Origin: a phage
Length of the DNA stretch: 64,000 nt
Direction: 5' to 3' (one strand)
Assembly (NCBI GenBank): GCA_014435945.1
Contig: GCA_014435945.1_4088.1
Shown piece by piece: positions 22,355 through 44,650 of this stretch (the stretch's first letter is position 1; each line of letters starts with the position of its first letter). The notes under the pieces were generated by a model. The model worked only from the letters and a program-made list of their open reading frames with translations. It searched no databases and had not been told where the DNA came from. Position numbers and translations under genes: made by a program.

Positions 22355-22355
22355 A

Positions 22356-22762: not shown

Positions 22763-23887
22763 TTAATTATCTAAGCCACCAATTACACTGAACTGTGTGG
22801 TAACGTCTGAACTATTATCTATGTAAGTTCTTCTACCAACATAATATAGTTGTCCTTTTGCTTGTATAAAAGTTACTGTCCCTGTATTGAATGTTATAAT
22901 ATCATTGTATGTAATGTCAGGTGGTAGTGCTGCTGATAACGCAGTAACTTTACTTAATGCAGCACTAGTACTACCATTTATACCAGCAGCAATACTACCA
23001 GTACCATAGAACTTATTATCTTTACCAATGAATACGTTGGCTGATGCTTGTGTAGCTGATGTTATTGCCTTACCAATTTGGAATGCGGTTCCTATGGTGT
23101 ATGGTGTGCTCCTGGCTGCGTCTATGCTTTGTGTATATCCATCCCCTAGCTGACCATTAACTTTGTCACCACATGAGTATAGAGTACCATTGAGGCTGTA
23201 TATGATCCCACGGTTAGAGAAGCTAACAGCTTCTGCATTAGTCCATACTGGTGCGGTGTATGAGTTTACACGACTAGCGGTAGTTCCTAGACCTAGTATA
23301 CCATATGTGTTATCACCACATCCAAACCATTGCCCAGAACTGTTTTGATAGAACACTGAACGTTCTGTTGATTCCATGCGTACAGCATCCACAGCACCAC
23401 TTTTAACGAACGAAGTGGATGAGGATGTAGTACCAGTACCCAATGCACCATAAGTGTTTGTACCAATCGCATAGATTGATCCTAGTGGTGTCATAACACG
23501 TATGCAGTTATATCCCAATTGAACTTTACATTCAAATAGGTTGTCCCATATTTCAGGAACAGCAGAAAATAAATTTGTAATTTCGAACCATGATGTTGTC
23601 GAACCAGTTAATCCTATACTGCTTTTGTTTCCTAAAATGAAAACAGTTTTGTCCTTCTTAATTATCCATGATGATAGGAAACCTATCTCACAGCTATGAA
23701 CATTTGATTCTATTTGGGTAATATAATACTTAACTGTGTTATCACCCATGAATGCCGCAGCACCGGATGCAAAAAGGTTTCCAGTTTGTTTATTTAAAAT
23801 GTAGTTATTGTTTCCATATACTCTAACATCATAAGAACTTTCTTGTTTTTCGTTCCCATAATCAAATAACAATACGAAAGGTAACAT
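22763..23887 (-). CDS. RCC1-like repeat protein, array member 17 (divergent leader MLPFVLLFDYGN)
   Basis: Repeated G-x-N-x-x-GQLG-x-G-like motifs; paralog of array. Confidence 0.7.
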   Translation of the reverse strand: MLPFVLLFDYGNEKQESSYDVRVYGNNNYILNKQTGNLFASGAAAFMGDNTVKYYITQIESNVHSCEIGFLSSWIIKKDKTVFILGNKSSIGLTGSTTSWFEITNLFSAVPEIWDNLFECKVQLGYNCIRVMTPLGSIYAIGTNTYGALGTGTTSSSTSFVKSGAVDAVRMESTERSVFYQNSSGQWFGCGDNTYGILGLGTTASRVNSYTAPVWTNAEAVSFSNRGIIYSLNGTLYSCGDKVNGQLGDGYTQSIDAARSTPYTIGTAFQIGKAITSATQASANVFIGKDNKFYGTGSIAAGINGSTSAALSKVTALSAALPPDITYNDIITFNTGTVTFIQAKGQLYYVGRRTYIDNSSDVTTQFSVIGGLDN

Positions 23888-23964
23888 GATAAAATCTCCT
23901 TGTGTTATACTTTATTTAATCATTTTATAATGTACAATTTTACAGCGATTTAATTGAGGTACTC

Positions 23965-24615
23965 ATGAATAAAAGAAGTAAGTTCTATCAAGAATATTTC
24001 ACTAAACAGAAACGATTCACAAAAAAATACTTTACATCATCCCACCGACCAGTTGCAAGTTACAAACGTCCTAATACTAACTATCTTACTGGTGGCAAGT
24101 TTAGTGCAAAGTTCGAATTACTTATGCGTGAAAAGAATATCAAGATGCATTACGCAGAGACGAGAAAAAACTCATCAATTATTTGCTCTGATTTTCTTGA
24201 GTACGGTTGCTTAACTTATAAATTCAACGATGTATATTTGTATATTGATGTTGATTGTAACAGTACTCGTATGTTTGAGATTTCAATTCACCCAAATCAC
24301 AACCGTTATATAAACATTAACTTGGTTGATAAAGTACTGATTGGTATATCTAGTACTGATGGTGGTGGATTTGAATTTATTGCTTCAAAATATGATGAAG
24401 ATTTCGTACTTTACCCAGTACTTGATGATGTGAAAGATATTCTCAATTCATTAAAAGGAAGTCAATACAAATTATCTGAAGAACAGCTATTCCAGTACTC
24501 ACTTATTCATGATGATATCGAGATATACTTAGAGTGTGCGAGAATCTTGGAGTATCTTTATAATGAACTAACAACAACTGGTAAAGTGACTGCATTCACA
24601 TTATATAATATGTAA
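23965..24615 (+). CDS. hypothetical basic protein (216 aa), opposite strand, embedded inside the RCC1-like array
   Basis: ORF track; SD GAGG; TATAAT upstream. Confidence 0.5.
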   Translation: MNKRSKFYQEYFTKQKRFTKKYFTSSHRPVASYKRPNTNYLTGGKFSAKFELLMREKNIKMHYAETRKNSSIICSDFLEYGCLTYKFNDVYLYIDVDCNSTRMFEISIHPNHNRYININLVDKVLIGISSTDGGGFEFIASKYDEDFVLYPVLDDVKDILNSLKGSQYKLSEEQLFQYSLIHDDIEIYLECARILEYLYNELTTTGKVTAFTLYNM

Positions 24616-24622
24616 AAGAAAA

Positions 24623-24641
24623 GCCAGTACATAGTACTGGC
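24623..24641. terminator. bidirectional terminator hairpin GCCAGTAC-ata-GTACTGGC
   Basis: Inverted repeat between convergent genes. Confidence 0.55.
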
Positions 24642-24647
24642 ATTATA

Positions 24648-25784
24648 TTAAACTGGTGGAGAATTATATGGCTCAAATTTATAAGTTGTCGTAGCAGTAC
24701 CAGCAATGGCGTTGTTAGCTAGTATGTACATAGTCCTGTAGTCGATTACCACCACAGTAATACTACCACCAAAAGCATAGTCTGTTATGTTATTAGTGTT
24801 GAATGGTAAATTAGATGAACTGGTCCATGTATTAGCTGTTGTGCTATTTGTACCATTGGAATAGCCGACACTAGATGCACCAGTTGTCCATAAGTTTCCA
24901 TCATTGAACAACGATACATGGTTAGCTGTATATGATTTATTAGGTATAGAACTATCAATTGGTGTATTCCAAACTTTAGTAACCCATGTTGTAACTGCTG
25001 TATTATTAGTAACGCCATTACCTAATGAACCATTTATTGGTATACCTCTTATATAAGAAGTGTTAGTACTAGGGTCAACATATCCAAATGTATATGTATC
25101 AAATGCAAATTGAAAACAATCAGAACTCGGTAATGTGTACAGTAATGTATATGAAGACGTGTTTATTGATGAATTTGTACCGTTCACGCCTTGGTATAAA
25201 ATACCACTAGCCAATATTTGATTATTATTTTTTGTTATAGTGTTCATTGACGGATATGTTTTCACATCACGCACATCATTAGTCACATATGTTTGTGTTG
25301 ATAATGCAACATTACTACCATTACCTATAACTCCTGTATTTGCACCACTCCCATAAAGTGAACCATCATTCAAAAGAACCATTGTGACATTACCATTTCC
25401 CGTAATTGTTTTAATATTACTAACATCCACCGCAGCAAATACAGTTGATGTTAAATCAGTGAAACGTGTATAATGTGATGTTGTGCCATTGATTGGTGTC
25501 GCAAAACCAGAATACAAAATTCTATTTTCTTTGGTAATAAGGAATGTGCCAGTAACACCATTTGAATGGATATCAACAATATTATCGCCCATTAATACCC
25601 AATCACTTACGAATGTTGTTGTGCCAGTACCTAACCCATATGTAGTGTTGTAACCACGTCCATATACTCTACCATCACTGAGTAATGTTACCACACATTG
25701 ACCACCACCACCAAGTATAACTTTTTGTATAGTACTCTTTACTTTTATATTCCCGTACTTAACCATTCTTGCAAAAGGTAACAT
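24648..25784 (-). CDS. RCC1-like repeat protein, array member 16 (leader MLPFARMVKYGN)
   Basis: Conserved N-terminus; GQLG-type repeats; own promoter/SD cassette. Confidence 0.75.
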   Translation of the reverse strand: MLPFARMVKYGNIKVKSTIQKVILGGGGQCVVTLLSDGRVYGRGYNTTYGLGTGTTTFVSDWVLMGDNIVDIHSNGVTGTFLITKENRILYSGFATPINGTTSHYTRFTDLTSTVFAAVDVSNIKTITGNGNVTMVLLNDGSLYGSGANTGVIGNGSNVALSTQTYVTNDVRDVKTYPSMNTITKNNNQILASGILYQGVNGTNSSINTSSYTLLYTLPSSDCFQFAFDTYTFGYVDPSTNTSYIRGIPINGSLGNGVTNNTAVTTWVTKVWNTPIDSSIPNKSYTANHVSLFNDGNLWTTGASSVGYSNGTNSTTANTWTSSSNLPFNTNNITDYAFGGSITVVVIDYRTMYILANNAIAGTATTTYKFEPYNSPPV

Positions 25785-25856
25785 AATTCCCTCCTTTATT
25801 CATTATACTATATTTAATCAAAAAAGAAAAGCCAGTACTCAAGTACTGGCATTATT
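25785..25856 (-). promoter_or_regulatory. array intergenic cassette: hairpin terminator (25831-25850), T-run, TATAAT, AAGGAGG SD
   Basis: Near-identical sequence recurs between array genes. Confidence 0.65.
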
Positions 25857-27017
25857 TTAAATTGGTGAATCTTCAACAAATATAGTACTAGCAGTACCAC
25901 CAGATACTAGGTTAGTACCACTTGAATATATTTTGTTTCCATCTGTCATATATGTTTTACCATAGCAACTTTGGATTTTAACATCATTGAAATTTAAATC
26001 AGGAGTAATAGACTTAGTGTAAGTTAATACGTTAGTAGTTGAACCTGTACTTAATTGTCCATAGTATGAAGTCGCTGAGTTATTACCAGCAACGTATACA
26101 CCTGTGTCAGTAATAACAAAGTTAGAGTAATATCCGTACCCATATCCTATATCTAATATATTTCCTTGTGGTTGATTTGCCACAACAGTTGTCAATATGT
26201 TGGTTGATGCTGCTGTATTAGTAGCAGTCTGTCCATATGATTGGTCACCACCAGTATACACAGTAACAACAGACGTACTTTTGTTTCTAGCAATACCTTG
26301 AACCATACCATTAACAGTACTTATAAATGCTATAGTACTAACAGTTGCTGGTAATCCATCTGATAATGCGAATACATTATAAAAACTCACGGTTGAAGTA
26401 CTGTTAGTATCACCTTTAACTTCACCTGTGTAATATAATCTACCACTTTCGGCAATAAATGAACACATGTTTATACCTGCAATAATCCTTTTCGGAACCG
26501 CACCACTTGGTATAATTGATTTTACTAATGTAGTAAAACTGTTAGAATAAGAAGCATTGCCAAGCTGTCCTCCTGTGTTATAACCACCACTCCAAATAGT
26601 TCCATTACTCATAAGTATTGAAATGAAGTTATTTCCTAATGATATTTCAGTAATTGTTCCTTGAGAATTAACTTGATTAATAAGAGTTTGCATAGAAGTC
26701 CATGCATTAACAGATGATGTACCCATACACACATTGTATTGTCGCCCTGTGTATTGATATGTACCATCTGATTTGTGAATCATTGTAGCATACTGACCAC
26801 ACCATACATCAATGACATCCGATGCAGTTACTGTCCATGATGTTCTGGTTGTATTGTCTCCTAAACCCAACTGACCACTTGAATTGGCACCACGGGTATA
26901 TAATTTACCATTATTACCCAATACCATAACCCAGTTATACCCTGCAACTAATTTTTTAATGGCAGCAGGGGATGGTGCAATGTTTCCGTAATCAAACATT
27001 CTAACAAAAGGTAACAT
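25857..27017 (-). CDS. RCC1-like repeat protein, array member 15 (MLPFVRMFDYGN)
   Basis: As above; 12-nt gap to upstream gene. Confidence 0.75.
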   Translation of the reverse strand: MLPFVRMFDYGNIAPSPAAIKKLVAGYNWVMVLGNNGKLYTRGANSSGQLGLGDNTTRTSWTVTASDVIDVWCGQYATMIHKSDGTYQYTGRQYNVCMGTSSVNAWTSMQTLINQVNSQGTITEISLGNNFISILMSNGTIWSGGYNTGGQLGNASYSNSFTTLVKSIIPSGAVPKRIIAGINMCSFIAESGRLYYTGEVKGDTNSTSTVSFYNVFALSDGLPATVSTIAFISTVNGMVQGIARNKSTSVVTVYTGGDQSYGQTATNTAASTNILTTVVANQPQGNILDIGYGYGYYSNFVITDTGVYVAGNNSATSYYGQLSTGSTTNVLTYTKSITPDLNFNDVKIQSCYGKTYMTDGNKIYSSGTNLVSGGTASTIFVEDSPI

Positions 27018-27029
27018 AATTATTCTCTC

Positions 27030-28148
27030 CTATATTACTATTTTTTCTTCAGTATATATTAATGCTTTATCTGAGGTAGTGTATCCAGGTAAAGGATACA
27101 ATCTACCTGCAACATAACATATGTCATTTTCTATATAATATGATGAATATGTACTGTCAAAGAATATAGGCTCTATTGAAGTTGGTGCATTGATCATCTT
27201 AGTAAATGCTGGAACCGGTCCAGGTGCAAAACTTGCATTTGTACTGGTAAACCCATAATTATCGGAAACTGCTGACGCATAATAATCGGTTCCATTCTGG
27301 ATTATTATTCTTGCTGCAACCGAACTACTATTATGAACGATTTTAGGAAATGCAAATGTAGCTGCATTATATGTGAATGGTAACGAACAAGAAACTAAAG
27401 TTGCAGTTGCACCAGACACTGATGTTCCATATGTATTGTTGACGTTTCCTCTGGCAAATACACCACTAGCTGTATTAAGCACTACAACAGCAACTGTTGC
27501 TGAATAACCCAAAACCCCTGTTGCAATTTGGGTAAACCCAGTGGAACTAGGTATTTGACTAGCGTTTGGGTTTCCAGAACCATAAAGAACCCCAGAATTA
27601 GTTAATGCCCATACGTTTGCATACATTAATTTGAATGACTTGACATCACTGACTATTGTATTTTTAACAAAAGATGTACTACTACTTGGTGTGCTCATTC
27701 CAAATATATATTGCGTATTCGTACCAATGAACCACAATTCTCCTAAATTTGTTAGCACACCTATACAGTTACGTAACACATTAACTTGAACATCAATTAT
27801 TGTACCAGTTATTGCATTAAAAATCGAACTACAATTAACAAATATATTACTTGTTGGATAACCAAATGCAGTAGTTACACCGCTACACATATACTGACCG
27901 TCTTTGAGTTTTAAAAATGTCCACGTAGGTGAATTGTAAAAGTCATCAACATTTTCATATATCAAAGTCCACTTATCAGCAGATGTAGTAACATCACCAA
28001 ACTGACCATTTGTATTTGGTCCAGTAGCATATAATTTCCCACTTGTTGTTAGTAATAAAACTCCATTACTACCATCCGTGACCAATTTGCGTATTTTCGT
28101 AACTTCTCTTACATTCCCGAACTTAACCATTCTTGCAAAAGGTAACAT
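27030..28148 (-). CDS. RCC1-like repeat protein, array member 14 (MLPFARMVKFGN)
   Basis: As above; 9-nt gap, SD only. Confidence 0.75.
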   Translation of the reverse strand: MLPFARMVKFGNVREVTKIRKLVTDGSNGVLLLTTSGKLYATGPNTNGQFGDVTTSADKWTLIYENVDDFYNSPTWTFLKLKDGQYMCSGVTTAFGYPTSNIFVNCSSIFNAITGTIIDVQVNVLRNCIGVLTNLGELWFIGTNTQYIFGMSTPSSSTSFVKNTIVSDVKSFKLMYANVWALTNSGVLYGSGNPNASQIPSSTGFTQIATGVLGYSATVAVVVLNTASGVFARGNVNNTYGTSVSGATATLVSCSLPFTYNAATFAFPKIVHNSSSVAARIIIQNGTDYYASAVSDNYGFTSTNASFAPGPVPAFTKMINAPTSIEPIFFDSTYSSYYIENDICYVAGRLYPLPGYTTSDKALIYTEEKIVI

Positions 28149-28157
28149 ATTTCCCTC

Positions 28158-29315
28158 CTAATTTATATTCAATTTGATTTCTGTGTAGTTCATCAGTTTT
28201 GGATTATTACCTGGAAAATAAGTTAAAGAATCATCATTAAAAGGCCCACTACCAAATACTTTCCCATCAGAGTTTATAAGAGTTGTATAATTACTTGCAC
28301 TAACAACTGTCTCAATATTACCATCCACTGAACTGAAATCCTGTAATGTAAAGTTTGAACCAGCACCTGGCACAGTTGGGTTGGTGAATCCCATTCTGTT
28401 AGTACTACTGCTATTTGCACCAACACCATAATGAACGACTGAATTGGAAATCCACACACTGACGGTCGCTGTCTGTTCATCTGTTAGAATCTTAAATGTA
28501 CTTACATCATAAGAAAACGGCAATGTAATCTTGCTATTAATTGCACGCTGTTCTGCACTGAATGAATAACCATATCTGTTCGACGATAAACCACGGAAAT
28601 ATAAACCATCACTTTTTGTGTATAACAATTCACCATTTAAACCATTACCGTAGATATTAAGTATAGCAGTATCACCAAGGTTCGTAAATGTAGTCACATC
28701 AGTATTACCACTAATAAACTGATAATTACCACAGAACCACGCTGTATTATCATTCTTAAGAGCCACTATAGTCTCATAAGAACAACTTACAAAATTCCTG
28801 CAATTGGTGTTTATCTTCGTAAATGTTCCTAAACTATTACTTTTGCCTAACCCCAATTGACCACGGTTTCCATATCCAATACCATATAAATCACCATCAG
28901 TGTTTAATGCATATACTGTGTACGAAGCATTATTCCTTCTGGTAAAATCAATCTTCTTGATAGTTCCTAATGCAGAGAACGTAGAACTAACATCAATATA
29001 ATTCAATCCTGAACTACCACCCAGTACTGTAGAGTCGCCAGCAGCAAGATAACGTCCATCAGACATTATTAATAATGTACATCTGGGATGACATATCATA
29101 TCCGATACACCCTGCATTACCATCTGCGGAACTCCCCCACTAATCTCACTAGAACTACCACTACCAAATCTCCAGTTGGTGTTTTGACCATATGCATACA
29201 CGTCACCTGTATTCGTCAATATCATCTGACTAGTACCGAAAGAGTTTATCTTCTTAATCCCAGCAGGTACTGGTGCAATATTCCCGTACTTAACCATTCT
29301 TGCAAAAGGTAACAT
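28158..29315 (-). CDS. RCC1-like repeat protein, array member 13 (MLPFARMVKYGN)
   Basis: As above. Confidence 0.75.
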   Translation of the reverse strand: MLPFARMVKYGNIAPVPAGIKKINSFGTSQMILTNTGDVYAYGQNTNWRFGSGSSSEISGGVPQMVMQGVSDMICHPRCTLLIMSDGRYLAAGDSTVLGGSSGLNYIDVSSTFSALGTIKKIDFTRRNNASYTVYALNTDGDLYGIGYGNRGQLGLGKSNSLGTFTKINTNCRNFVSCSYETIVALKNDNTAWFCGNYQFISGNTDVTTFTNLGDTAILNIYGNGLNGELLYTKSDGLYFRGLSSNRYGYSFSAEQRAINSKITLPFSYDVSTFKILTDEQTATVSVWISNSVVHYGVGANSSSTNRMGFTNPTVPGAGSNFTLQDFSSVDGNIETVVSASNYTTLINSDGKVFGSGPFNDDSLTYFPGNNPKLMNYTEIKLNIN

Positions 29316-29324
29316 ATTTCCCTC

Positions 29325-30500
29325 CTATTCTGGTAAAATCATTTTCTTCATTTTAACTTGTTGTGTACCTGGACTCTGTTCCTGAAACATAGAGCCGTTC
29401 CCACACCAGTACACCTCATTAGTCCCCACTAACGCGTATAACACACCAGAACCACCTTGAACTGAAAATGCATTAACATCTGGTGCAACATCCATATCCT
29501 CATATTGTACCTGGTGGTAATAAGATCTTTCTGATGCAGTAGTAACAGGCCAACCAAGAGGAACACCACTACCACATGTATAAAGTTTACCATTCTGTGT
29601 CATTGCCATTATAAAATAATTCAAACTGTGATTGTTCATCGACCCAGCATCTGGTATAATACCACTAATTGCGGGAGTGGCACTAAATGGACTCATGATA
29701 CTAGTAGTGTCGCCATAACCAATACCTAAAGTATAATCAGTGTTTATACCAGCAGTATATACTCTAATATTACCATTATTAGATGTAAGTACTAAAGTCG
29801 TTAATGTAGTACATGAAATACCAATAACTGTTCCCGATATATCAGTACTTACCGTAAATGTCGAAAGTTTAGAAGAACCTGACCCTAAGTTGTAACTTGC
29901 GTTATTCCCACATCTGTAGTATTGATTATTTTTAACATAATGGAAAGCATCCCCAGCCGTTGTTCCCGCAATTATAGTAACTCCAGTAGCAATCTGAATT
30001 GGCGTTGTTTTTCTACCAGTAACACCCAATGCACCTCCTGTATTACGCCCAATCCCATATAAGTCCCCATTACTTAACAAAATCAATAACGCACCATTTG
30101 ATGCAGTAGTTTCAGTAGCAGCTATATCTACTACTGTAGTAAGTGCTGGTATTGTAGACAATAAAGATGTGATATTAGTCCATCCAGGAACTGGTGATGC
30201 AGATACACCGACATAACCCATTTGACCAGCTAAGTAAAATGCTCCGTCAGTCGTAAGTATAATTGTTGCTGCAAAGAAGCACCAAACATTAGAAACTTTA
30301 TATGGACACTGTACCCACCCATTTTGCACATACGCAGTGCTATTATTTCCTAGCATATAGTTTGCACCATTTCCACGTAGATATAAGTTACCACTATCAA
30401 ATAACATACCCATATGTGATGGAGATGTACTTATCTTCATAACACCTGAAGGTGCTGGAACTCTGTTTCCGTACTTAACCATTCTTGCAAAAGGTAACAT
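29325..30500 (-). CDS. RCC1-like repeat protein, array member 12 (MLPFARMVKYGN)
   Basis: As above; first gene of an apparent 4-gene operon. Confidence 0.75.
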   Translation of the reverse strand: MLPFARMVKYGNRVPAPSGVMKISTSPSHMGMLFDSGNLYLRGNGANYMLGNNSTAYVQNGWVQCPYKVSNVWCFFAATIILTTDGAFYLAGQMGYVGVSASPVPGWTNITSLLSTIPALTTVVDIAATETTASNGALLILLSNGDLYGIGRNTGGALGVTGRKTTPIQIATGVTIIAGTTAGDAFHYVKNNQYYRCGNNASYNLGSGSSKLSTFTVSTDISGTVIGISCTTLTTLVLTSNNGNIRVYTAGINTDYTLGIGYGDTTSIMSPFSATPAISGIIPDAGSMNNHSLNYFIMAMTQNGKLYTCGSGVPLGWPVTTASERSYYHQVQYEDMDVAPDVNAFSVQGGSGVLYALVGTNEVYWCGNGSMFQEQSPGTQQVKMKKMILPE

Positions 30501-30571
30501 ATTTCCCTCCTTTATTCATTATACTATATTTAATACAAATAAGAAAGCCAGTATCAAGTACTGGCCTATAT
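30501..30571 (-). promoter_or_regulatory. array intergenic cassette (hairpin 30546-30564, TATAAT, AAGGAGG)
   Basis: Seen directly. Confidence 0.65.
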
Positions 30572-31741: not shown

Positions 31742-31811
31742 ATTTCCTCCTTTATTCATTATACTATATTTAATCAAAAAGAAAAGCCAGTATCAAGTAC
31801 TGGCATTATTG
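31742..31811 (-). promoter_or_regulatory. array intergenic cassette (hairpin 31786-31804)
   Basis: Seen directly. Confidence 0.65.
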
Positions 31812-33002: not shown

Positions 33003-33073
33003 ATTTTCCTCCTTTATTCATTATACTATATTTAACCAAAAAGAAAAGCCAGTGCTCAAGTACTGGAGTAATG
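33003..33073 (-). promoter_or_regulatory. array intergenic cassette (hairpin 33049-33066)
   Basis: Seen directly. Confidence 0.65.
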
Positions 33074-34216: not shown

Positions 34217-34281
34217 AATTCCCTCCTTTATTCATTATACTATATTTAATACAAATAAGAATGCCAGTATCAAGTACTGGC
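34217..34281 (-). promoter_or_regulatory. array intergenic cassette; hairpin 34263-34281 overlaps last codons of upstream gene
   Basis: Seen directly. Confidence 0.6.
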
Positions 34282-35466: not shown

Positions 35467-35537
35467 ATTTCCCTCCTTTATTCATTATACTATATTTAAT
35501 TCAAAAAGAAAAGCCAGTATCAAGTACTGGCATTATG
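35467..35537 (-). promoter_or_regulatory. array intergenic cassette (hairpin 35513-35531)
   Basis: Seen directly. Confidence 0.65.
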
Positions 35538-36647
35538 TTATTTTGGTAAATCAATTTTAGTAAAGACTGCAACATCCTCGCTTGCCCCTGGGATGGCGTA
35601 ATAAGAACCAGTACTATATACATCTCCGTCTTTTGTTAATATTGATGTCAAACCATCACTAAAAAGAACATCCCTAATTGCACTAACTTCAACGGGTAAT
35701 TGTAAATTTGTAGCACTATATATAGCACCAGTTTGAGAATTGTTTAATCCCAAACCACGGTTCGCCCCAACACCCTTCTGATATGTACTAGTAATTACCA
35801 TTTGTGTCGCAGTATTTAAGGCAGGTGAATTCGTCATAAACAACGGAGAACTATTCGGCAAAGTACTTACAGGAACTGCACGGAATGTAGTTGTATCTGA
35901 ACTAAGAAAGTTTGGCGTTTGACCACATACGAAATATGATGTACCATTATAGTAATTAAATGCATTACCACCTATAGCTGCATCTATTACTCCAGTACTA
36001 CGTAATCCCCACGTGTTAATTTGTGTTCGGTTCCCCGTGCCATGCTGACCCCTGTCATTCCACCCAGAACTATATAACTTATTATCTAATGTAATATACA
36101 TACTGTCATTTGCATTCGTCATTACTTTACGCACATTAGTAGCACATTGAGTTAATGTGTAAATTGATGATGAACCAATACCTAAAGCACCACGATATCC
36201 ATTAGCCCCTGCACCATAGAGTACTGAACTAGTGCTAAGTACAAATATTAAACCATACGAACATACTATATCAGCAATTTCATTTACCGATAGTACACTC
36301 GTAAACCACGCAGTCCTATCAACTAATACAGTACTGTAAGAAGTCCCAGTAGAAGACGAAAACCAATAAGTCTCACCAGCAGTCCATATAGTATTGTCAC
36401 TCTTAATAACAACAACTGTACGATCACCAGCAAAAAAATTAGTAACTCCTGTACTCACTAATCTCCATGAAGATACAGTGTTGGTATTACCATTACCAGA
36501 TTCACCACCTTGATTTCTTCCTATGTAATATAAATCATGTGAATCAGTCAATAAGAATTGACCCTGTGTGGAAGCACCAACTTTAATTATATTTTTAGGA
36601 CCAGGTGCAACATTCCCATACTCCAACATCCTTACAAAAGGTAACAT
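35538..36647 (-). CDS. RCC1-like repeat protein, array member 7 (MLPFVRMLEYGN)
   Basis: As above. Confidence 0.75.
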   Translation of the reverse strand: MLPFVRMLEYGNVAPGPKNIIKVGASTQGQFLLTDSHDLYYIGRNQGGESGNGNTNTVSSWRLVSTGVTNFFAGDRTVVVIKSDNTIWTAGETYWFSSSTGTSYSTVLVDRTAWFTSVLSVNEIADIVCSYGLIFVLSTSSVLYGAGANGYRGALGIGSSSIYTLTQCATNVRKVMTNANDSMYITLDNKLYSSGWNDRGQHGTGNRTQINTWGLRSTGVIDAAIGGNAFNYYNGTSYFVCGQTPNFLSSDTTTFRAVPVSTLPNSSPLFMTNSPALNTATQMVITSTYQKGVGANRGLGLNNSQTGAIYSATNLQLPVEVSAIRDVLFSDGLTSILTKDGDVYSTGSYYAIPGASEDVAVFTKIDLPK

Positions 36648-36657
36648 ATTTCTCTCC

Positions 36658-37788
36658 TTAATTTAATAATGCCCCTGGCAAATCCACTTTGACGAATTGT
36701 GCATATGCTGAGGAATTTTGATCAAAGTTTGGTCCCAATCCATAAAATGAGCTAATGCCGTCTTCATTTGTGTATATGATATAAACGTTCTTTACATCAT
36801 TTCCGCATATAAATCGAATGTCTTTCGTTTGTGTTCCCGCTGGAACATTACGAAGGTTCACAACGCCATTACTTGCATTGTTATCAGCCGCCGCAATTGG
36901 TAATTGATTTTGACCATATTGACCACGCATATTTTTTGCATCTAAACCAAACACAGTATCTGATACCGCACCAACTTTCAAAAATGAACCAAAACTATTA
37001 TTGAATGACTTTGGAAATGTACCACTATAAACACTTCTCCCATCTGATAATACCGCTGAACTGAATTTCCCGCTATTCGATATGGCAAATTCATTGTAAG
37101 GAAGTGTACCCATTTTGGTATATACAGAATATGAATTAGTGGAAGTATTATCAATAATCTTATTACCATTATATCCAATACCATACTGGTATCCGTCTGC
37201 ATCTTGAACTATACACAAAGGACCACTTGGGGTTTGTGTCAACGAAACAACACGTTCAACTTGTATATCACCAAATGTATTTCTTCGCCATGTTCTATCT
37301 ATTATAGTACTAGTATTACCCAAAGATAATGCCACACTATATAATAGATTGTTTTCAGTAAAAATGGCAACATAATATGCGTGGTTAATAACTTGCTTCA
37401 TCCCAGCATCAATAACTTCCTGTGGAATATGATCAGTAACATCCAACCAATCAAGGTTAGATGATGCAATATCTGGAGTACTGAATTTGTCAAATCTAGT
37501 TGAGCCACAAACTAGCACTCTATCATCATTTGTCAAAGCCACTGTGCTAGTCTGCATATTAGAACTGAATGATTTAACATTACTAATGTTAGACTTGTAC
37601 CAACCCTTATCAGCAGCACCCACCGTGAATCCGGTTCCCATTGATCCACTTGTACTTGTACCATAAGCCCACATCTCACCACTATATGTTAGTGCCATAC
37701 AGTGGCTTCCATTTGCTTGGAAATCCTTTATACCAGTGGGAGCAACCACTGTATTCCCATAATCAAACATTCTAACAAAAGGTAACAT
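36658..37788 (-). CDS. RCC1-like repeat protein, array member 6 (MLPFVRMFDYGN); start at conserved MLPF codon
   Basis: Track start 37803 adds MEILV. Confidence 0.7.
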   Translation of the reverse strand: MLPFVRMFDYGNTVVAPTGIKDFQANGSHCMALTYSGEMWAYGTSTSGSMGTGFTVGAADKGWYKSNISNVKSFSSNMQTSTVALTNDDRVLVCGSTRFDKFSTPDIASSNLDWLDVTDHIPQEVIDAGMKQVINHAYYVAIFTENNLLYSVALSLGNTSTIIDRTWRRNTFGDIQVERVVSLTQTPSGPLCIVQDADGYQYGIGYNGNKIIDNTSTNSYSVYTKMGTLPYNEFAISNSGKFSSAVLSDGRSVYSGTFPKSFNNSFGSFLKVGAVSDTVFGLDAKNMRGQYGQNQLPIAAADNNASNGVVNLRNVPAGTQTKDIRFICGNDVKNVYIIYTNEDGISSFYGLGPNFDQNSSAYAQFVKVDLPGALLN

Positions 37789-37803
37789 AACTAAAATCTC
37801 CAT

Positions 37804-37863
37804 ATAATAATTATAATGTATTTACAAAAAAATACCAGTACGTATTTCAGTACTGGTATAATG
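37804..37863 (-). promoter_or_regulatory. array intergenic cassette variant (hairpin ACCAGTAC..GTACTGGT, TATAAT, GGAG)
   Basis: Seen directly. Confidence 0.55.
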
Positions 37864-39045
37864 TTATGGTAAAATAATAGCTTGTAACGAACTCATACCC
37901 AATGTTGGGACACTCGCCTGTGGTGCTGGTGAATTCAATTTTGGTGATGAAACCGCATATGACATTCCTGAACCCAAATCTGGATCAAAAACTACAGCAC
38001 AATAATTCCCACTATATATAAGTCCATTCTTGTATCCTTGTGCACTTTGAATGCATTTCGTGAACGTACCAATATCTGTAGTGGCATTTATTAAGTTCCT
38101 CCCACGATAACCGCAGGTGTATATGAAATTATCATCGCCTATGTACATACTAGAATCCCCAGAAGAACTACATAGATACGACATATAAGCACGCATGTTT
38201 TTAGGAGCAACTGACAATGTACCTGCATAGAATTTATTATTCGAACCCGTAATATCACCATCACCCAATGCACCAAAACTTCCCCAGCCAGTACCGTAAT
38301 ATCTCTTATCACTCAAAAATATAATACAGTTGTTATTACACATCTTGATTTGATATATCAATGAAGGATCAACCCCAGGGAATGATTCAGTGAATGTTAG
38401 AACAGCCGGATCAGTACTAGCATTACATTGATGATATGTATTAGTACCAGCGGACAAGATTGTTCCATTAGCTAACAGAATTCTCGCAGTACCAGTACCA
38501 GCAGTACAAGCAACTGCACTTCCTGCACTTCCGGTGTATATTTGTCTGAAAGTAAAGAAACCAACAGTTTTACTTCCCTGCCCACTCCAACCAGTATTAT
38601 CAACTCCACACGCCCATACTGAACCATCTTGCATGATCATCATTACACCAAAGCGTTCTATTGAAATATAAACAATCTTCGTTGTATCAACTGCACTAAA
38701 TCTAGAAGTTATATCAGTCCATACCTTAACACTTACCGCCGTCGCACTGGAAGTAGGATCTTCACCAGCTATCATTATCCTCCCATTGTTAGTAAGATAC
38801 ATTGTCTGACTATAACCAGTACTACAAAACTTAACACTATTAGTCTCTGGAACTTTTAACCACTCGTTGTAACGTGTTACGTTAGTGTTATTACCTAACT
38901 GATAATAGTTATTCATCCCAGATACATATAACACACCATCCTTTATTAAACTATAAGTCGCACTATAGTCACTACAGGTATAACGTGTACCCACAGGTCG
39001 CTCAACGACGTTCCCATAATCAAACATTCTAACAAAAGGTAACAT
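37864..39045 (-). CDS. RCC1-like repeat protein, array member 5 (MLPFVRMFDYGN)
   Basis: As above. Confidence 0.75.
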   Translation of the reverse strand: MLPFVRMFDYGNVVERPVGTRYTCSDYSATYSLIKDGVLYVSGMNNYYQLGNNTNVTRYNEWLKVPETNSVKFCSTGYSQTMYLTNNGRIMIAGEDPTSSATAVSVKVWTDITSRFSAVDTTKIVYISIERFGVMMIMQDGSVWACGVDNTGWSGQGSKTVGFFTFRQIYTGSAGSAVACTAGTGTARILLANGTILSAGTNTYHQCNASTDPAVLTFTESFPGVDPSLIYQIKMCNNNCIIFLSDKRYYGTGWGSFGALGDGDITGSNNKFYAGTLSVAPKNMRAYMSYLCSSSGDSSMYIGDDNFIYTCGYRGRNLINATTDIGTFTKCIQSAQGYKNGLIYSGNYCAVVFDPDLGSGMSYAVSSPKLNSPAPQASVPTLGMSSLQAIILP

Positions 39046-39118
39046 AATAAAATCTCCGTAATTAAATTATATAGTATTTACAAAAAATACCAGTACATAT
39101 TTCAGTACTGACCTATTA
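39046..39118 (-). promoter_or_regulatory. array intergenic cassette variant
   Basis: Seen directly. Confidence 0.55.
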
Positions 39119-40240
39119 TTAAAAGGGCAACGGTAACTCAGTAAAAGTACTTACGTCCGGTAAACCATACATTGAATTAGCATCACCACAGTAATACCAC
39201 TTCGTAGAATCATGTACCACCGATAAACGCTGTGCACATAACACTTCCTGTATGTCATTAAACACCATCGGGACTAACTCATATGTATCCGCAAATGAAG
39301 ATACACCACCACTCGCATGAAAAGTATTCGTCCCAGCATAAAATAACTGATTAGTGTTCTTACCCACAGCAAATGTCATCAATATCCCATCATTCGCCCA
39401 TAAAGAAGAAAACTTATCAACACTACCAGAAAGCTCTGTGTAAGTACTCGTAATGGCACTCGCAGCCGCCGCATTACCCATCTGTTTATTCAAGTTCTGT
39501 CCAGCAATAAAATATCTCGTGCGTGCACTAGAATCAGTATATAATAACCCAGTGTTCGTAGTCATCATTCCAATGTCCTTAATCGTCATACCAGTCTGTG
39601 AATAACTTAGATACGAAGTTAAATTAACATTATTACCCAACGAACCGTTATCACTCATACCACAACGATGTAATATACCACTTGTATCAACGTAGATTGT
39701 ACTAACTAAACTCGTATACAACTCTTGTACATTATTCGCAATAAACACAGCAGTCGCCTTATTACTAACCCCACCAAATGATAGGTTATTATCAAATCCC
39801 TTAGCGTATAATTGATTATTAGTAGTCAATAATCCAATCGTGAAATAAGACATTTTCATATCCCTTACTGTACTCAAATCTACTGCCCCAAATTGGTGCG
39901 TAACATCTGTCCATGTGAAAATCTGTGCACTACCAACACCACCCGTTTCAAACCATTTGTCACCACAGTACAATATGCGATTACCCTTAGTAAAGATAAC
40001 TGTTACCAATCCACTACCACACGCAAACTTTACATCACTTCTAACCTTCGTCCAATTAAGTACATAGGTAGTGGTGTTATTACCTATACCTAACTTGCCA
40101 TAACGGTTATAACCACGCACCCACAAATCACCACTCTTAGTAATTAATAGTAATGCGTCTCCTGTACTTATTATTCGAAATCCCGAACTAGGATCAGGTG
40201 TAATATTTCCATAATCAAACAATCTAACAAAAGGTAACAT
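39119..40240 (-). CDS. RCC1-like repeat protein, array member 4 (MLPFVRLFDYGN)
   Basis: As above. Confidence 0.75.
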   Translation of the reverse strand: MLPFVRLFDYGNITPDPSSGFRIISTGDALLLITKSGDLWVRGYNRYGKLGIGNNTTTYVLNWTKVRSDVKFACGSGLVTVIFTKGNRILYCGDKWFETGGVGSAQIFTWTDVTHQFGAVDLSTVRDMKMSYFTIGLLTTNNQLYAKGFDNNLSFGGVSNKATAVFIANNVQELYTSLVSTIYVDTSGILHRCGMSDNGSLGNNVNLTSYLSYSQTGMTIKDIGMMTTNTGLLYTDSSARTRYFIAGQNLNKQMGNAAAASAITSTYTELSGSVDKFSSLWANDGILMTFAVGKNTNQLFYAGTNTFHASGGVSSFADTYELVPMVFNDIQEVLCAQRLSVVHDSTKWYYCGDANSMYGLPDVSTFTELPLPF

Positions 40241-40249
40241 GATTTTCTC

Positions 40250-41443
40250 CTATGATTGCCATAACTGCGTTGGCATTAATGTTAATGTTTTAATTACGGA
40301 AGTACCATCCGGTAAGTTACCACCTGAACCGTTAAAGCCCCCACATGCATATAATTTATAATCTTTAGTTATAATTATTGTTCTGGACCAGTCTTTGGAT
40401 GCCATAAGAACATTGTCATATCCACCCTGTATCGCACTTAAAGAAAACGCCCCCCACGAAGTAATTACTGTTGTATTTCCCGTCCCTTCTTGACCATATG
40501 TATTGATGCCTGCACTCCTGACATATGATGGGTATTGAGCCATAGGTGCACCAATTGTTGAGTTACCCATATTACTAGGACACAGGAAACCATCACTAAT
40601 ATTCACTATAACCTGTGAATTCTGAACTGTAGTTAATTGGTTTGTAGTTGAAGTAGTACCATTCCCAGCTTGTCCAGAATTGTTTCTACCACTCCAGTAC
40701 ACCCTACCGGCAGTGAACCACCAGGTAACATCATAAGTAGCACTTATATAATCGACGTTGGATCGTATTAATTTATTAGTAAAAACGTATGAGCTAGTCC
40801 CACCACCACTTTCACCAAAGTTATCCTTACCACAAAACCATGCTTCTTTATTTGTTTTGAGATAGTGCGTACCCTGTAATGAACACGCCAATTGAGAAAC
40901 TTCACCCATACCAGTAACAACTGTTAGTACTGGAATGGAATTTTGGTTACCTGTTCCACATTCGGCATTTGCATTTTTACCACAAACAACTACTCTTCCA
41001 TCGTGTAGTAATATTCTAGTACTTTCACCTATATGTACACTCTTGATTAAATTAGCGTGTACATTTATTTTGTTAAATGCGGCAGTAACATCAGTCCATG
41101 TTCTAAAATAACCATTAACTGGAGTTGCATCTCCATAATCGGGGAATGCTACAGTATTCCCTGTGAAATATATTCTATTATCCAAGTCAATCATCAATGA
41201 GCCATGAACGCCTAACCAAAAGGCTGCACAGTGCGTTGCCAGTACTGTAAAAGTAGAAACTGTCGATTGATTCCCTAGACCTAATTGGCTCAAGTTATTA
41301 CCACCATAACCGTATAGTGTATTCGTGGGCTTATGTAGATACATAGCATTAGTATAATGTTGCTGTAAAACATCAGTGAACTCAACTGGATCAGGAATAG
41401 GCAGTTTATTCCCGTATTTAACCATTCTTGCAAAAGGTAACAT
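40250..41443 (-). CDS. RCC1-like repeat protein, array member 3 (MLPFARMVKYGN)
   Basis: As above. Confidence 0.75.
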   Translation of the reverse strand: MLPFARMVKYGNKLPIPDPVEFTDVLQQHYTNAMYLHKPTNTLYGYGGNNLSQLGLGNQSTVSTFTVLATHCAAFWLGVHGSLMIDLDNRIYFTGNTVAFPDYGDATPVNGYFRTWTDVTAAFNKINVHANLIKSVHIGESTRILLHDGRVVVCGKNANAECGTGNQNSIPVLTVVTGMGEVSQLACSLQGTHYLKTNKEAWFCGKDNFGESGGGTSSYVFTNKLIRSNVDYISATYDVTWWFTAGRVYWSGRNNSGQAGNGTTSTTNQLTTVQNSQVIVNISDGFLCPSNMGNSTIGAPMAQYPSYVRSAGINTYGQEGTGNTTVITSWGAFSLSAIQGGYDNVLMASKDWSRTIIITKDYKLYACGGFNGSGGNLPDGTSVIKTLTLMPTQLWQS

Positions 41444-41513
41444 ATTTCCCTCCTTTATTCATTATACTATATTTAATCAAAAATAAATGCCAGTACACAG
41501 TACTGGCATAATA
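41444..41513 (-). promoter_or_regulatory. array intergenic cassette (hairpin 41489-41507)
   Basis: Seen directly. Confidence 0.65.
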
Positions 41514-42692
41514 TTATCGGTTAAATTTAAAATCTGTTATGTGTGTCCATGTATGATTTAATGGTGTACTCATTGGTGTAAAGCCAGCAGGGTCTGACAA
41601 AGCTGTACCACGTGCGTACATAAATTGATTGCCAGTACAATCCATTATAGCATAAGAACGTTTTGCTGTGCCACATTTGAACCCAACTGCACTACTTGGG
41701 GTCGGTAATACTTCAAATGTAGGTGCATTTGAACTACCACCCCCATCTTTTGTTCCAGCTATGTACAGAACTCCATTAGTATCAATGATTAAGTTAGTCC
41801 AATATACTTGTTCTCGTCCAGCAAAAAAATATGTTAAATCACCTGGTACAAATGGTAACGTTCCTTTATATATTGTGGTATTAACATCCACTGGTGCACC
41901 AGCTACACCCCATGAACTCATATAGTTTCTCCCACTTGCGTAGAATGTAGTTCCTTTACCGTAAAGTATTAATGTTGCTAGACTTGTTCGCATTGCATTA
42001 TATTCAAACTCAGGATCATCAGTAGCGTCCTTAAAAATCTGTGTCCATGTTGTTATATTGCCAGTAGTTGTAACACCCATTTGATAATAATAATTATCAC
42101 CAGTAGCATAGAATTCTTTAGGGCCAGTTTGTACAATTGCATTCCTATTAGTTAACCAAAAATCTAATGTATTAGTCTTGATCTTGGTTGGTGTGTAATT
42201 CGCCACGGTATTTCCTTTTCCGAAATAACCATTAGCGTTATTTCCATGACCCCATAAATCACCATTAGTTGTGCGTAGGAATAATGTACCAATATTGAAT
42301 CCAACTTTTTCTATAGTACTTATGTCAATACCAACAGTCGTGTACTTCGTTGTAAAATCTTGAAAAGTACTCCAATAATTAGATGAACCATTAAACATGG
42401 TTTGTTTACCAGTGTACTTCACTTTATTATCTTTAGTGATAAGTAATGTCCCCCACACTGACGCGAACATCAACTTAACATTTTCCATAACAAAGTATGG
42501 CTTACCGTATGCTGACGCGGTAGAGTTCAAACCTAATAGTTGTCCATTATTACTACAACCCCATACTTCGCCGTTATCCAAAAGCATCAACATAGTAGGT
42601 TTGCCAGATGATACATCCAAAAAGAAATCTTTTGGTGTTGGTACACCAGGTGTAATATTTCCATAATCAAACATTCTAACAAAAGGTAACAT
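41514..42692 (-). CDS. RCC1-like repeat protein, array member 2 (MLPFVRMFDYGN)
   Basis: As above. Confidence 0.75.
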   Translation of the reverse strand: MLPFVRMFDYGNITPGVPTPKDFFLDVSSGKPTMLMLLDNGEVWGCSNNGQLLGLNSTASAYGKPYFVMENVKLMFASVWGTLLITKDNKVKYTGKQTMFNGSSNYWSTFQDFTTKYTTVGIDISTIEKVGFNIGTLFLRTTNGDLWGHGNNANGYFGKGNTVANYTPTKIKTNTLDFWLTNRNAIVQTGPKEFYATGDNYYYQMGVTTTGNITTWTQIFKDATDDPEFEYNAMRTSLATLILYGKGTTFYASGRNYMSSWGVAGAPVDVNTTIYKGTLPFVPGDLTYFFAGREQVYWTNLIIDTNGVLYIAGTKDGGGSSNAPTFEVLPTPSSAVGFKCGTAKRSYAIMDCTGNQFMYARGTALSDPAGFTPMSTPLNHTWTHITDFKFNR

Positions 42693-42764
42693 ATTTCCCT
42701 CCTTTATTCATTATACTATATTTAATCAAAAATAAAAGCCAGTACTCTGTACTGGCATATTAAT
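42693..42764 (-). promoter_or_regulatory. array intergenic cassette (hairpin 42738-42756)
   Basis: Seen directly. Confidence 0.65.
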
Positions 42765-43913
42765 TCATTGTATAAATGACATATCTACTTCTGTATAATT
42801 AAGAACGTTCTGTCCAGAAATACCACCCATTACTACTATTGCAATGCCACAATAATATAATTTTCCAGTATCCGTAAGTATAAGTGAACCAGATGGACTG
42901 CGTACCAAATTACACGAAGTATTAAACGAAGTATATGAAGGAGTATAGGAGTACTGATTATTATTATTACCAACACCTAATTGCCCAAACCCATTCGATC
43001 CAGAAGCATATAGAACTTCATCTGCTTTGACAATATGTGATGCCATGTTACCAACACAAGTATATAGAGTATAAACTCCTGAACTCAATAATGTCGGAGT
43101 TTTATATTGTATATCTGTAGATGTAGAAGTACCACCTGTACCAAATTCGTTCCCATATTGTGCACCGAACTGTTTACCACAAGCGTACAAATTATTATCC
43201 GATTTGATAAAAAATGTACTCTGATAACTTACATTAAAATCTATAACATCCGAAGAAATCATCGTCACCCCAGTAATAGAAGTTTGATTACCCGTGCCCA
43301 ACTGGTAGTAATAGTTAAAACCACAACCCCATAAAGTATTATCTTCTCGCAAATAAATGTTACCAACTGCCTTTTTAACCGAAGTTATAGTATCTACTCT
43401 TTTGAATGTGTTAAAAGAATTAATGTTTGTGCCATCACCAAATGATGATATGTTCGATATATTGTTAGCTCCACAACAATACAATGTACCATCGTTTGTT
43501 ATCAAATTCACCTTCATATCATAAAAACTACTCATGTATTTTATATCAGAAACATTAATACCACTTGATGTTATCCACGTAGTACAGTCCGTCCACAAAG
43601 TTTTTCTATCAGTTACACCAGTGAATGCCTTCGTGTTACCAGTGATAAAAACTTTTCCAGTACCTTTCTCTTCATACAATTGACAATCACTACTGTTATC
43701 TTCCAATAGAACTCGTTTAACATTCTCCGCACAAAGAATAAATTTACTCGATGCTACACCTGTACCAGTACCCCAATTCGTCGCAGAAGATGCATACAAC
43801 TTATCAGTATAAGTATCATGAAGATACATAGAATCACTGGAATATATTTTAAAACGCCCTTCTTTCTCAGGTATAATATTCCCATAATCAAACATTCTAA
43901 CAAAAGGTAACAT
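42765..43913 (-). CDS. RCC1-like repeat protein, array member 1 (MLPFVRMFDYGN); track start 43931 is translated SD region
   Basis: Start at conserved MLPF codon. Confidence 0.75.
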   Translation of the reverse strand: MLPFVRMFDYGNIIPEKEGRFKIYSSDSMYLHDTYTDKLYASSATNWGTGTGVASSKFILCAENVKRVLLEDNSSDCQLYEEKGTGKVFITGNTKAFTGVTDRKTLWTDCTTWITSSGINVSDIKYMSSFYDMKVNLITNDGTLYCCGANNISNISSFGDGTNINSFNTFKRVDTITSVKKAVGNIYLREDNTLWGCGFNYYYQLGTGNQTSITGVTMISSDVIDFNVSYQSTFFIKSDNNLYACGKQFGAQYGNEFGTGGTSTSTDIQYKTPTLLSSGVYTLYTCVGNMASHIVKADEVLYASGSNGFGQLGVGNNNNQYSYTPSYTSFNTSCNLVRSPSGSLILTDTGKLYYCGIAIVVMGGISGQNVLNYTEVDMSFIQ

Positions 43914-44015
43914 ATTTCCTCCTTTATTCATTATATCATATTTACCCCATAAACAAAACCCTTGACATCCTTTCAGTACTGGTGTACTATAGAAGGAATA
44001 TAAGGAGAACTGTAC
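43914..44015. promoter_or_regulatory. divergent promoter region: -10/SD cassette for the minus array and TTGACA-N17-TACTAT plus AAGGAG for the + strand mini-gene array
   Basis: cccttgacatcctttcagtactggtgtactat on + strand; TATAATGAATAAAGGAGG on - strand. Confidence 0.55.
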
Positions 44016-44452: not shown

Positions 44453-44453
44453 T

Positions 44454-44639: not shown

Positions 44640-44650
44640 AAGAGTACTAT

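Follow-up and report, generated by a model that had tools for sequence, protein, structure and literature searches.

A conserved N-terminal dodecapeptide heads a hypervariable gene array and marks candidate virion accessory proteins in Rak2-like jumbo phages

In phages with multiple receptor-binding proteins (CBA120, G7C, KP32-like phages, RaK2/phiK64-1) a conserved N-terminus docks variable receptor-binding bodies on a common adaptor, and in branched tailspike systems no part of the genome is more plastic than these variable bodies. A short shared N-terminus is also found in phage T4 (NC_000866), where the gene order is denV-ipII-ipIII-e. The T4 genes ipII and ipIII (65416-66415) have the peptide MKTYQEFIAE in common, are identical over their first 32 nucleotides (nt) behind a conserved upstream hairpin or inverted repeat and ribosome-binding site (RBS), and then diverge. 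The T4 internal proteins have isoelectric points (pI) of 9.3-9.5, and their capsid-targeting sequence (CTS) ends in I-A-E; across the T-even phages the internal proteins are diverse and defence-related, with the CTS alone conserved (PMC3012670). PeSL cassettes, units of a stem-loop and a promoter, mediate modular shuffling in T4-type phages (PMC2839356, Arbiol et al. 2010; PMC4122927), and analogous cassettes have been noted at the internal-protein loci (PMC2839356). Here we analyse an array of 17 tandem genes at 22763-43913 on the minus strand of a 64,000-nt stretch of phage DNA (contig GCA_014435945.1_4088.1 of assembly GCA_014435945.1; hereafter the window), whose products begin with a near-invariant dodecapeptide, referred to below as the leader or tag.

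By megablast the window belongs with the 121Q/PBECO4-like (Asteriusvirus) jumbo coliphages of 350-386 kb. The 17 open reading frames (ORFs) of the array encode RCC1-like β-propellers of 369-398 amino acids (aa), with Pfam matches to RCC1 repeats and the RCC1-like domain (PF00415, PF25390). We consider it likely that the tag is a portable virion-incorporation or docking peptide, kept uniform and shuffled by cassette recombination. The initial annotation of this DNA had proposed a targeting signal or a recombination module, and both proposals are supported, at different levels: swapping is shown directly, targeting by association.

The layout resembles the T4 internal-protein loci in having tandem genes with nucleotide-identical starts near denV. 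As the initial annotation had indicated, a denV gene lies near the array (17420-17935, plus strand, Pfam Pyr_excise), about 4.8 kb away, a proximity that may be coincidental. The analogy drawn there with T4 holds for the denV-ipII-ipIII order and the shared N-terminus in T4, but the evidence supports neither membership of the CTS family nor an interior, DNA-associated location. MKTYQEFIAE and MLPFARMVKYGN have no sequence similarity, and the phage clade that carries the tag is that of the Rak2-like jumbo phages.

The proposal that every array member starts with one of two peptides is correct for 12 of the 17 proteins, six with exactly MLPFARMVKYGN (A-type) and six with MLPFVRMFDYGN (V-type). 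The other five differ by 1-3 residues, two carrying ...VRLFDYGN and one each ...VKFGN, ...VRMLEYGN and ...VLLFDYGN. A degenerate pattern for the first seven codons of the leader has 16 minus-strand sites compared with none in 100 shuffles; the 17th gene (22763-23887), which begins MLPFVLLFDYGN, falls outside these matches. The ATG-to-stop coordinates of the 17 genes agree exactly with the array span given in the initial annotation and are as follows.

42765-43913, minus strand: array gene 1, 382 aa, RCC1-like propeller; leader MLPFVRMFDYGN at 43878-43913
41514-42692, minus strand: array gene 2, 392 aa; leader MLPFVRMFDYGN at 42657-42692
40250-41443, minus strand: array gene 3, 397 aa; leader MLPFARMVKYGN at 41408-41443
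39119-40240, minus strand: array gene 4, 373 aa; leader MLPFVRLFDYGN; separated from the gene 3 stop by only 9 nt (RBS)
37864-39045, minus strand: array gene 5, 393 aa; leader MLPFVRMFDYGN
36658-37788, minus strand: array gene 6, 376 aa from the MLPF start; leader MLPFVRMFDYGN; the mechanically called ORF starts 15 nt upstream
35538-36647, minus strand: array gene 7, 369 aa; leader MLPFVRMLEYGN
34270-35466, minus strand: array gene 8, 398 aa; leader MLPFARMVKYGN
33074-34216, minus strand: array gene 9, 380 aa; leader MLPFARMVKYGN; AlphaFold model a 7-bladed propeller with residues 1-20 flexible
31812-33002, minus strand: array gene 10, 396 aa; leader MLPFVRLFDYGN
30572-31741, minus strand: array gene 11, 389 aa from the MLPF start; leader MLPFVRMFDYGN; the mechanically called ORF crosses the upstream cassette as MIKYSIMNKGGN-
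29325-30500, minus strand: array gene 12, 391 aa; leader MLPFARMVKYGN
28158-29315, minus strand: array gene 13, 385 aa; leader MLPFARMVKYGN; 9-nt spacer, without cassette
27030-28148, minus strand: array gene 14, 372 aa; leader MLPFARMVKFGN; 9-nt spacer
25857-27017, minus strand: array gene 15, 386 aa; leader MLPFVRMFDYGN; 12-nt spacer; AlphaFold model with residues 1-18 flexible
24648-25784, minus strand: array gene 16, 378 aa; leader MLPFARMVKYGN
22763-23887, minus strand: array gene 17, 374 aa; divergent leader MLPFVLLFDYGN, codon 4 = TTC

At the nucleotide level the leader exists as two haplotypes, ATGTTACCTTTTGCAAGAATGGTTAAGTACGGGAAT (encoding MLPFARMVKYGN) and ATGTTACCTTTTGTTAGAATGTTTGATTATGGGAAT (encoding MLPFVRMFDYGN), and the reported identity at synonymous positions is confirmed: four A-type genes share all 36 leader nt, as do two V-type genes. 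All 17 genes use TTA at codon 2 and CCT, a non-preferred proline codon, at codon 3, where usage in the bodies is 0.47 for TTA and 0.33 for CCT. Codon 11 is GGG or GGA in all 17 and never GGT, which makes up 0.61 of the glycine codons of the bodies. Behind the near-invariant first 12 residues the bodies diverge, with pairwise identities of 12-33% (mean 19.5%), and at the nucleotide level paralogues go from 0.71-1.00 identity across nt 1-36 to about 0.35 once nt 37 is reached. Codon sharing at identical residues in the bodies is 0.451 compared with 0.441 expected, and their synonymous sites are therefore saturated. Recent duplication with uniformly low divergence along the genes, which the initial annotation had named as an alternative, is ruled out by the 12-33% body identity and the saturated synonymous sites.

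The evidence that links the tag to virions comes from close relatives of the window and from other members of the clade, rather than from the window's own phage. In virions of phAPEC6 purified on caesium chloride (CsCl), electrospray ionization tandem mass spectrometry detected eight array proteins annotated as 'DNA condensation' or RCC1-like (PMC7247149 Table 1). All eight begin MLPF[AG]RM.KYGN and their masses agree with the published table; in total, 8 of the 13 tagged phAPEC6 proteins are found in virions, compared with a background of 62/551 (hypergeometric p = 1.4e-5). Phage CBB has 11 tagged genes (CBB_144, 247, 536, 537 and 548-554), none of them RCC1-like, encoding proteins of Laminin_G_3, Kelch, GAP32-gp2-like and Gly-rich types. 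Nine of these 11 appear in the CsCl virion table of CBB (PMC5259590 Table 4), compared with 55/554 in the background (hypergeometric p = 2.4e-8), and the six CBB structural proteins listed by its authors as absent from GAP32 are all tagged. CBB_144, located between nrdD and nrdG, and CBB_247, located beside endonuclease VII, lie far from the cluster, among genes of metabolism and recombination, and are tagged virion proteins confirmed by mass spectrometry. In addition, gp1 of GAP32 has been reported to be structural, and the protein table of JP4 obtained by liquid chromatography-mass spectrometry includes tagged proteins. Tagged proteins are strongly enriched in purified virions of phAPEC6 and CBB. 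From this association we infer that the tag causes virion incorporation.

The tag is neither confined to RCC1-like proteins nor to coliphages. The consensus M-[LI]-P-F-x-R-[MIL]-x-x-Y-G-N heads 193 genes (180 non-redundant) in 21 genomes or contigs of Rak2-like jumbo phages. The pattern used to collect these genes constrains the first four codons only; further along, R6 is present in 133, Y10 in 161, G11 in 158 and N12 in 164 of the 180 non-redundant genes. Positions 5, 8 and 9 are free to vary, whereas the other nine hardly change from genus to genus despite differing codons, and homologues with as little as 40% identity retain M[LI]PF[AV]R...YGN. At least four folds carry the tag, namely RCC1, Kelch, ConA-like/Laminin_G_3 and Gly-rich, and this natural portability indirectly favours the idea that the tag might suffice to target a foreign protein. 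It occurs in Cronobacter phage GAP32, Xanthomonas phage XbC2, Klebsiella phage fENko-Kae01, Yersinia phage fHe-Yen9-04 and Pectobacterium phage CBB. A divergent 361-kb metagenomic phage starts 14 of 14 array genes with MIPF..., among them genes for a Kelch propeller, for ConA-like (Laminin_G_3) and Gly_rich_2 proteins, one of each, and for one protein without a Pfam match. Scanning IMG/VR with a degenerate DNA pattern matched only 12 contigs, all from jumbo phages; eleven measure 348-378 kb and the other 109 kb, and their tagged ORFs of 168-676 aa belong to several families. RCC1-like proteins of Clostridioides phages align only from residue 19-30 onward and have no tag, and cellular (non-phage) RCC1 homologues have none either. 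We found no account of the tag in the searchable literature; the RCC1 arrays and the presence of their products in virions are already published.

The tagged clusters of CBB (344368-355464) and fENko-Kae01 (331-340 kb) adjoin the long direct terminal repeat and are transcribed opposite to the neighbouring genes. CBB_144 and CBB_247 have the appearance of individually inserted cassettes.

At 85% identity or more, relatives cover 14-39% of the array by megablast, whereas they cover 80-91% of the adjoining 22 kb at about 98% identity; the array is thus a hypervariable island. Array gene 17 lies outside the hypervariable part, since unlike the other array genes it is 99-100% conserved in Turkey3 and WPEC3. 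Relating leader type to body phylogeny inside the window proved too weak and was replaced by comparisons of orthologues, for which the array genes of five related phages were grouped by body similarity. Orthologous bodies carry different leaders in these phages. A 449-aa orthologue pair of Turkey3 and WPEC3 is 99.7% identical from about nt +57 onward, yet the leaders are MLPFARMIKYGN versus MLPFVRLFDYGN, with 62% identity over nt 13-36; differences also cover the following seven codons, the intergenic stretch and the adjacent gene, and the breakpoint lies at +50 to +57. Orthologues of array gene 7 in related phages likewise start with ARMVKYGN, VRLFDYGN or GRMIRYGN behind the first residues. 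Over 47 orthologue pairs, identity is 99.6% at nt 1-12, 89% at nt 13-36 and 95% in the body, and the upstream 70 nt are 61% identical, often about 30% (random level). Homologous blocks that the window shares with its relatives stop either inside the intergenic cassettes described below or 34-49 nt past the start of the following gene, although block ends near leaders are partly trivial as every leader resembles every other.

Leader codon states are uniform within a genome and differ between lineages. Codon 2 is TTA in 17/17 genes of the window but ATA in 14/14 of the 361-kb phage; at codon 3 the coliphages have CCT without exception and the other phages mostly CCA. Genome-specific favourites are also seen at residues 5-10 (ARISKY six times, ARMLEY six times, PRLIEY, PQL.EY). 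Orthologues of window genes in other lineages are 40-56% identical, compared with 22-33% for the best paralogue; the paralogues are therefore older than the lineages, though their leaders are lineage-specific. The nucleotide identity of leaders within a genome is a product of concerted evolution, that is, of gene conversion and cassette exchange. A universal constraint on the leader at the nucleotide level is ruled out by the codon differences between lineages. Within the first 14,910 nt of the 361-kb phage (1-14910), ARVLTYGN occurs three times among the first four genes and AKILKYGN in two adjacent genes; this clustering of identical leaders in neighbours suggests short-range conversion.

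A second repeated element precedes the leaders. Upstream of most array genes lies a cassette of about 70 nt composed of a hairpin (GCCAGTAC-loop-GTACTGGC) with a T-run, the box AAATATAGTATAAT, the RBS AAAGGAGG and the ATG. It is present in full at nine genes and in a variant form at two, while at the first and last array genes the canonical hairpin is missing but box and RBS are retained. Five genes start 9-12 nt after the preceding stop with an RBS only, and still have the leader. The cassettes and related sites are as follows.

43914-43990, minus strand: region upstream of array gene 1; box AAATATGATATAAT at 43930-43943; AAAGGAGG RBS; no canonical hairpin
42693-42764, minus strand: cassette; hairpin GCCAGTAC...GTACTGGC with T-run at 42738-42756; AAATATAGTATAAT at 42710-42723; AAAGGAGG RBS
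41444-41513, minus strand: cassette; hairpin at 41487-41509; promoter-like box at 41461-41474; RBS
39046-39118, minus strand: variant cassette; hairpin at 39089-39112; TATATAAT box; GGAG RBS
37789-37863, minus strand: variant cassette; hairpin at 37832-37859; box at 37810-37823
35467-35537, minus strand: cassette; hairpin at 35513-35531; box at 35484-35497
34217-34284, minus strand: cassette; hairpin at 34260-34284, overlapping the end of gene 8; box at 34234-34247
33003-33073, minus strand: cassette; hairpin at 33049-33066; box at 33020-33033
31742-31811, minus strand: cassette; hairpin at 31786-31804; box at 31758-31771
30501-30571, minus strand: cassette; hairpin at 30545-30567; box at 30518-30531
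25785-25856, minus strand: cassette; hairpin at 25831-25850; box at 25802-25815
24623-24641, minus strand: terminator-like hairpin of the cassette-hairpin family, directly after the gene 16 stop

Terminator-like sites number 25 compared with 8.2 expected, and the box AAATATAGTATAAT occurs 15 times compared with 4.3 expected. The cassettes contain a TATAAT or TATAGT -10 box and no good -35 box; a scan for sigma-70 promoters showed no enrichment (88 compared with 97.8 expected), and an Rfam scan of the whole window matched no family. The cassettes resemble PeSL units in that a terminator stem-loop, a promoter-like box and an RBS are repeated between genes of the array, in that they flank non-essential genes in hyperplastic regions, and in that differences between close relatives map to them. 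They differ in that the homology in the window runs into the first 36 coding nt, with one breakpoint just after the leader (+50 to +57), in having no canonical sigma-70 -35 box, and in the five window genes that have a leader but no cassette.

Mechanically called or deposited ORFs are often over-long and read through the cassette (…IKYSIMNKGGN-MLPF…), as at 30572-31777 and 42765-43931 of the window, in phAPEC6 gp002 (3506-4810) and in JP4_581. Because these ORF calls begin upstream of the cassette, the shared MLPF start is hidden in several public records.

AlphaFold models of two array proteins, one for each leader type, are confident seven-bladed propellers with a mean predicted local distance difference test score (pLDDT) of 91.5 and 87.2. 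In both, residues 1-18/20 have a pLDDT of about 49-68 and no secondary structure. The models indicate that the leader is a flexible tail outside the propeller fold. The best Foldseek matches are UVR8, the RCC1-like domains of RPGR and HERC2, and RCC1, with E values down to 8e-21. The bodies thus share the seven-bladed RCC1-like propeller of cellular RCC1, whose proteins do not have the N-terminal tag. With a pI of 5.1-8.2, the array proteins contain 6.2% K+R, 6.3% D+E and 39.5% N+S+T+G, compared with 11.3%, 12.3% and 23% in the other ORFs of the window. Public product names for relatives of the array proteins ('DNA condensation protein', 'regulator of chromosome condensation', 'E3 ubiquitin ligase HERC1', 'S-layer protein', 'NS1A-binding protein') are transferred labels, of which 'DNA condensation protein' and 'HERC1 ubiquitin ligase' are misleading. 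DNA condensation is unlikely in view of the low charge content; the array proteins are neutral and poorly charged, and nothing in them points to DNA or Ran binding.

How the tag might work can be outlined as follows. As a short flexible docking or targeting peptide, the tag would bring accessory proteins that are otherwise unrelated to the virion of Rak2-like jumbo phages, either inside it or on its surface; selection at the protein level maintains the dodecapeptide. Leaders within a genome are homogenised because the 5' ends and the terminator/promoter-like/RBS cassettes undergo gene conversion and homologous exchange, and the same exchanges permit whole bodies to be gained, lost and re-joined to other 5' ends. 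Such gain, loss and re-joining of bodies would explain why the array is the most variable part of genomes that are otherwise 98% identical. It seems to us an even call whether the tag acts as a clade-wide virion-loading signal, resembling the T4 CTS in function but evolutionarily unrelated to it, so that any tagged protein is recruited to a common docking site. Candidate sites could be the 'hairs' or capsid fibres, or the inner body. As to the cargo, composition and fold type make us lean, by somewhat better than even chances, towards surface display or an adhesin-like role over internal cargo that is ejected, which is a distinctly smaller though sizeable possibility. Surface-exposed modules could bear on the hairs of CBB, phAPEC6 and 121Q.

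Among the alternatives, capsid targeting of the T4 type deserves most attention, although we think it unlikely. Here the tag would bind the prohead scaffolding core, and the propellers would reside inside the head and be ejected with the DNA as an anti-defence repertoire like T4 IPI*; the packed propellers might perhaps form the inner body seen in 121Q and phAPEC6. The match of the architecture to ipII/ipIII, with its shared N-terminus, 32 nt, upstream hairpin and RBS, and denV neighbour, speaks for this possibility, as do the diversity of the T4 internal proteins with only their CTS in common (PMC3012670), the virion presence of tagged proteins, and the hypervariability of the array, as expected of anti-defence cargo. 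An inner body is visible in bubblegrams of 121Q and phAPEC6, for which the authors of the phAPEC6 study proposed RCC1-like proteins as candidates. In both systems an N-terminal peptide of about 10-12 aa heads otherwise unrelated, hypervariable, virion-packaged proteins. However, the tag lies outside the T4 CTS family, because it has no similarity to the CTS, no cleavage motif and a neutral, poorly charged cargo. As the initial annotation had noted, a cleavage motif of the T4 gp21 type is missing: L/I-x-E occurs within the first 30 residues of only 1 of the 17 proteins, and no other acidic cleavage site is conserved. The tagged cargo is 170-680 aa long, propeller or lectin-like and of pI 5-8 (5.1-8.2 in the array), whereas that of T4 is small and basic (pI 9.3-9.5); closed propellers of 40 kDa and lectin-like domains are typical extracellular binders and would be awkward to pass through the tail tube. 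The composition of the cargo also counts weakly against a DNA-associated role. Up to 17 members occur per genome here compared with 2-3 in T4, and the number of RCC1-like genes (17 in the window, 1 reported in GAP32, none in CBB) is easier to reconcile with an accessory role than with that of a core inner body.

The remaining alternatives fare worse. That the leader is purely a recombination module at the DNA level, the 5' end and cassette serving only as homology for cassette exchange and the peptide having no function of its own, appears improbable. In its favour, breakpoints and block ends are concentrated at 5' ends and cassettes, the leaders of a genome have been homogenised at synonymous sites, and the PeSL units provide a precedent. 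Against this, the motif is kept across genera while the codons differ (TTA/ATA, CCT/CCA/CCG, AGA/AGG/CGA, GGG/GGA/GGT), with substitutions concentrated at positions 5, 8 and 9 and nine positions fixed; the five cassette-less genes of the window retain the leader, as do dispersed single genes of CBB that have no tagged gene annotated adjacent to them, and tagged proteins are enriched in virions. Still less probable is a translation-initiation element, in which the first codons keep the RBS region open or enhance the expression of co-regulated genes. In 16 of the 17 genes, less structure is predicted at the start region with the native leader codons than with synonymous ones (mean z +1.08, values that rest on about two independent haplotypes), and a strong conserved AAGGAGG RBS lies directly upstream. 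The effect is modest, however, synonymous states differ freely between lineages, and neither the conservation of R6, Y10, G11 and N12 in about 180 genes nor the virion enrichment is explained. Least credible of all is a structural role within the protein, as a propeller-closing 'velcro' strand or as a recognition site for a folding chaperone. RCC1-type propellers often close their last blade with an N-terminal strand, and the alternating hydrophobic residues of the tag are compatible with a β-strand. Yet both AlphaFold models leave residues 1-18/20 unstructured while the propeller closes without them, the tag also heads Laminin_G_3, Gly-rich and unknown folds, and it is missing from the non-phage RCC1 and Clostridioides phage homologues. 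A velcro strand or fold element is ruled out by the two models together with the presence of the tag on non-propeller folds.

Several observations weigh against a portable virion-incorporation peptide that is shuffled by recombination. The link to virions is a correlation drawn from four published proteomes, in which peptide counts are low (1-7); two tagged Kelch proteins of CBB and 5 of the 13 phAPEC6 members were not detected. The proteome of fENko-Kae01 was obtained from weakly purified particles, and we have given it little weight for this reason. The I/L-x-E protease site that accompanies the T4 CTS is present in just one of the 17 window proteins. Co-evolution of the leaders with a common partner could, in place of conversion, account for part of their lineage specificity, but it is insufficient on its own since the synonymous sites stay unexplained. 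Finally, selection at the mRNA level may contribute to the choice of leader codons.

Compared with branched tailspikes, which are fibrous trimers, the bodies of the window are monomer-like propellers or lectin folds with a 12-aa tag. In Rak2-like jumbo phages (121Q, PBECO4, phAPEC6, CBB, GAP32) the hairs on tail and capsid and the inner body still lack an explanation, and dozens of structural proteins have no assigned role. If the tag is indeed a virion-incorporation peptide, it identifies an accessory virion proteome from sequence alone and offers a handle on the docking partner. With recombination at the tag and cassettes, a set of as many as about 17 binding modules would then be reshuffled quickly. 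The array would represent a second, independent design of conserved targeting peptide and shuffling cassette beside the T4 internal-protein loci, suggesting a general solution for fast-evolving cargo, and the 12 residues would be a candidate for tagging foreign proteins that jumbo phages are to package or display.

The array of the window is an inverted block flanked by plus-strand genes. Between genes 16 and 17 it is split by a 216-aa ORF on the plus strand (23965-24615) with a basic N-terminus, which has no Pfam match, matches phrog_34359 (unknown function) and occupies the corresponding place in both Turkey3 and WPEC3. A plus-strand gene at 19450-20220, between denV and the array, encodes a 256-aa P-loop NTPase with weak AAA_16 and STAND-NTPase matches, annotated in relatives as 'ATP-binding protein' or 'FleQ'. 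Two plus-strand runs, at 13832-14867 and 20288-22727, encode predicted multi-pass membrane proteins of 104-123 aa; the three at 13832-14867 are paralogues by blastp, while those at 20288-22727 were grouped by eye and are not joined by blastp clustering. In the flanking 22 kb, some genes are annotated in relatives as 'immunity to superinfection' or 'lytic conversion lipoprotein'. On the other side of the array, the plus strand at 44016-49000 is densely filled with tandem ORFs of about 60-75 aa, which belong to several small paralogue families, among them six members at 44860-46004 that end ...EVLKLISI and seven at 46604-48410 that end ...LLIYRY.

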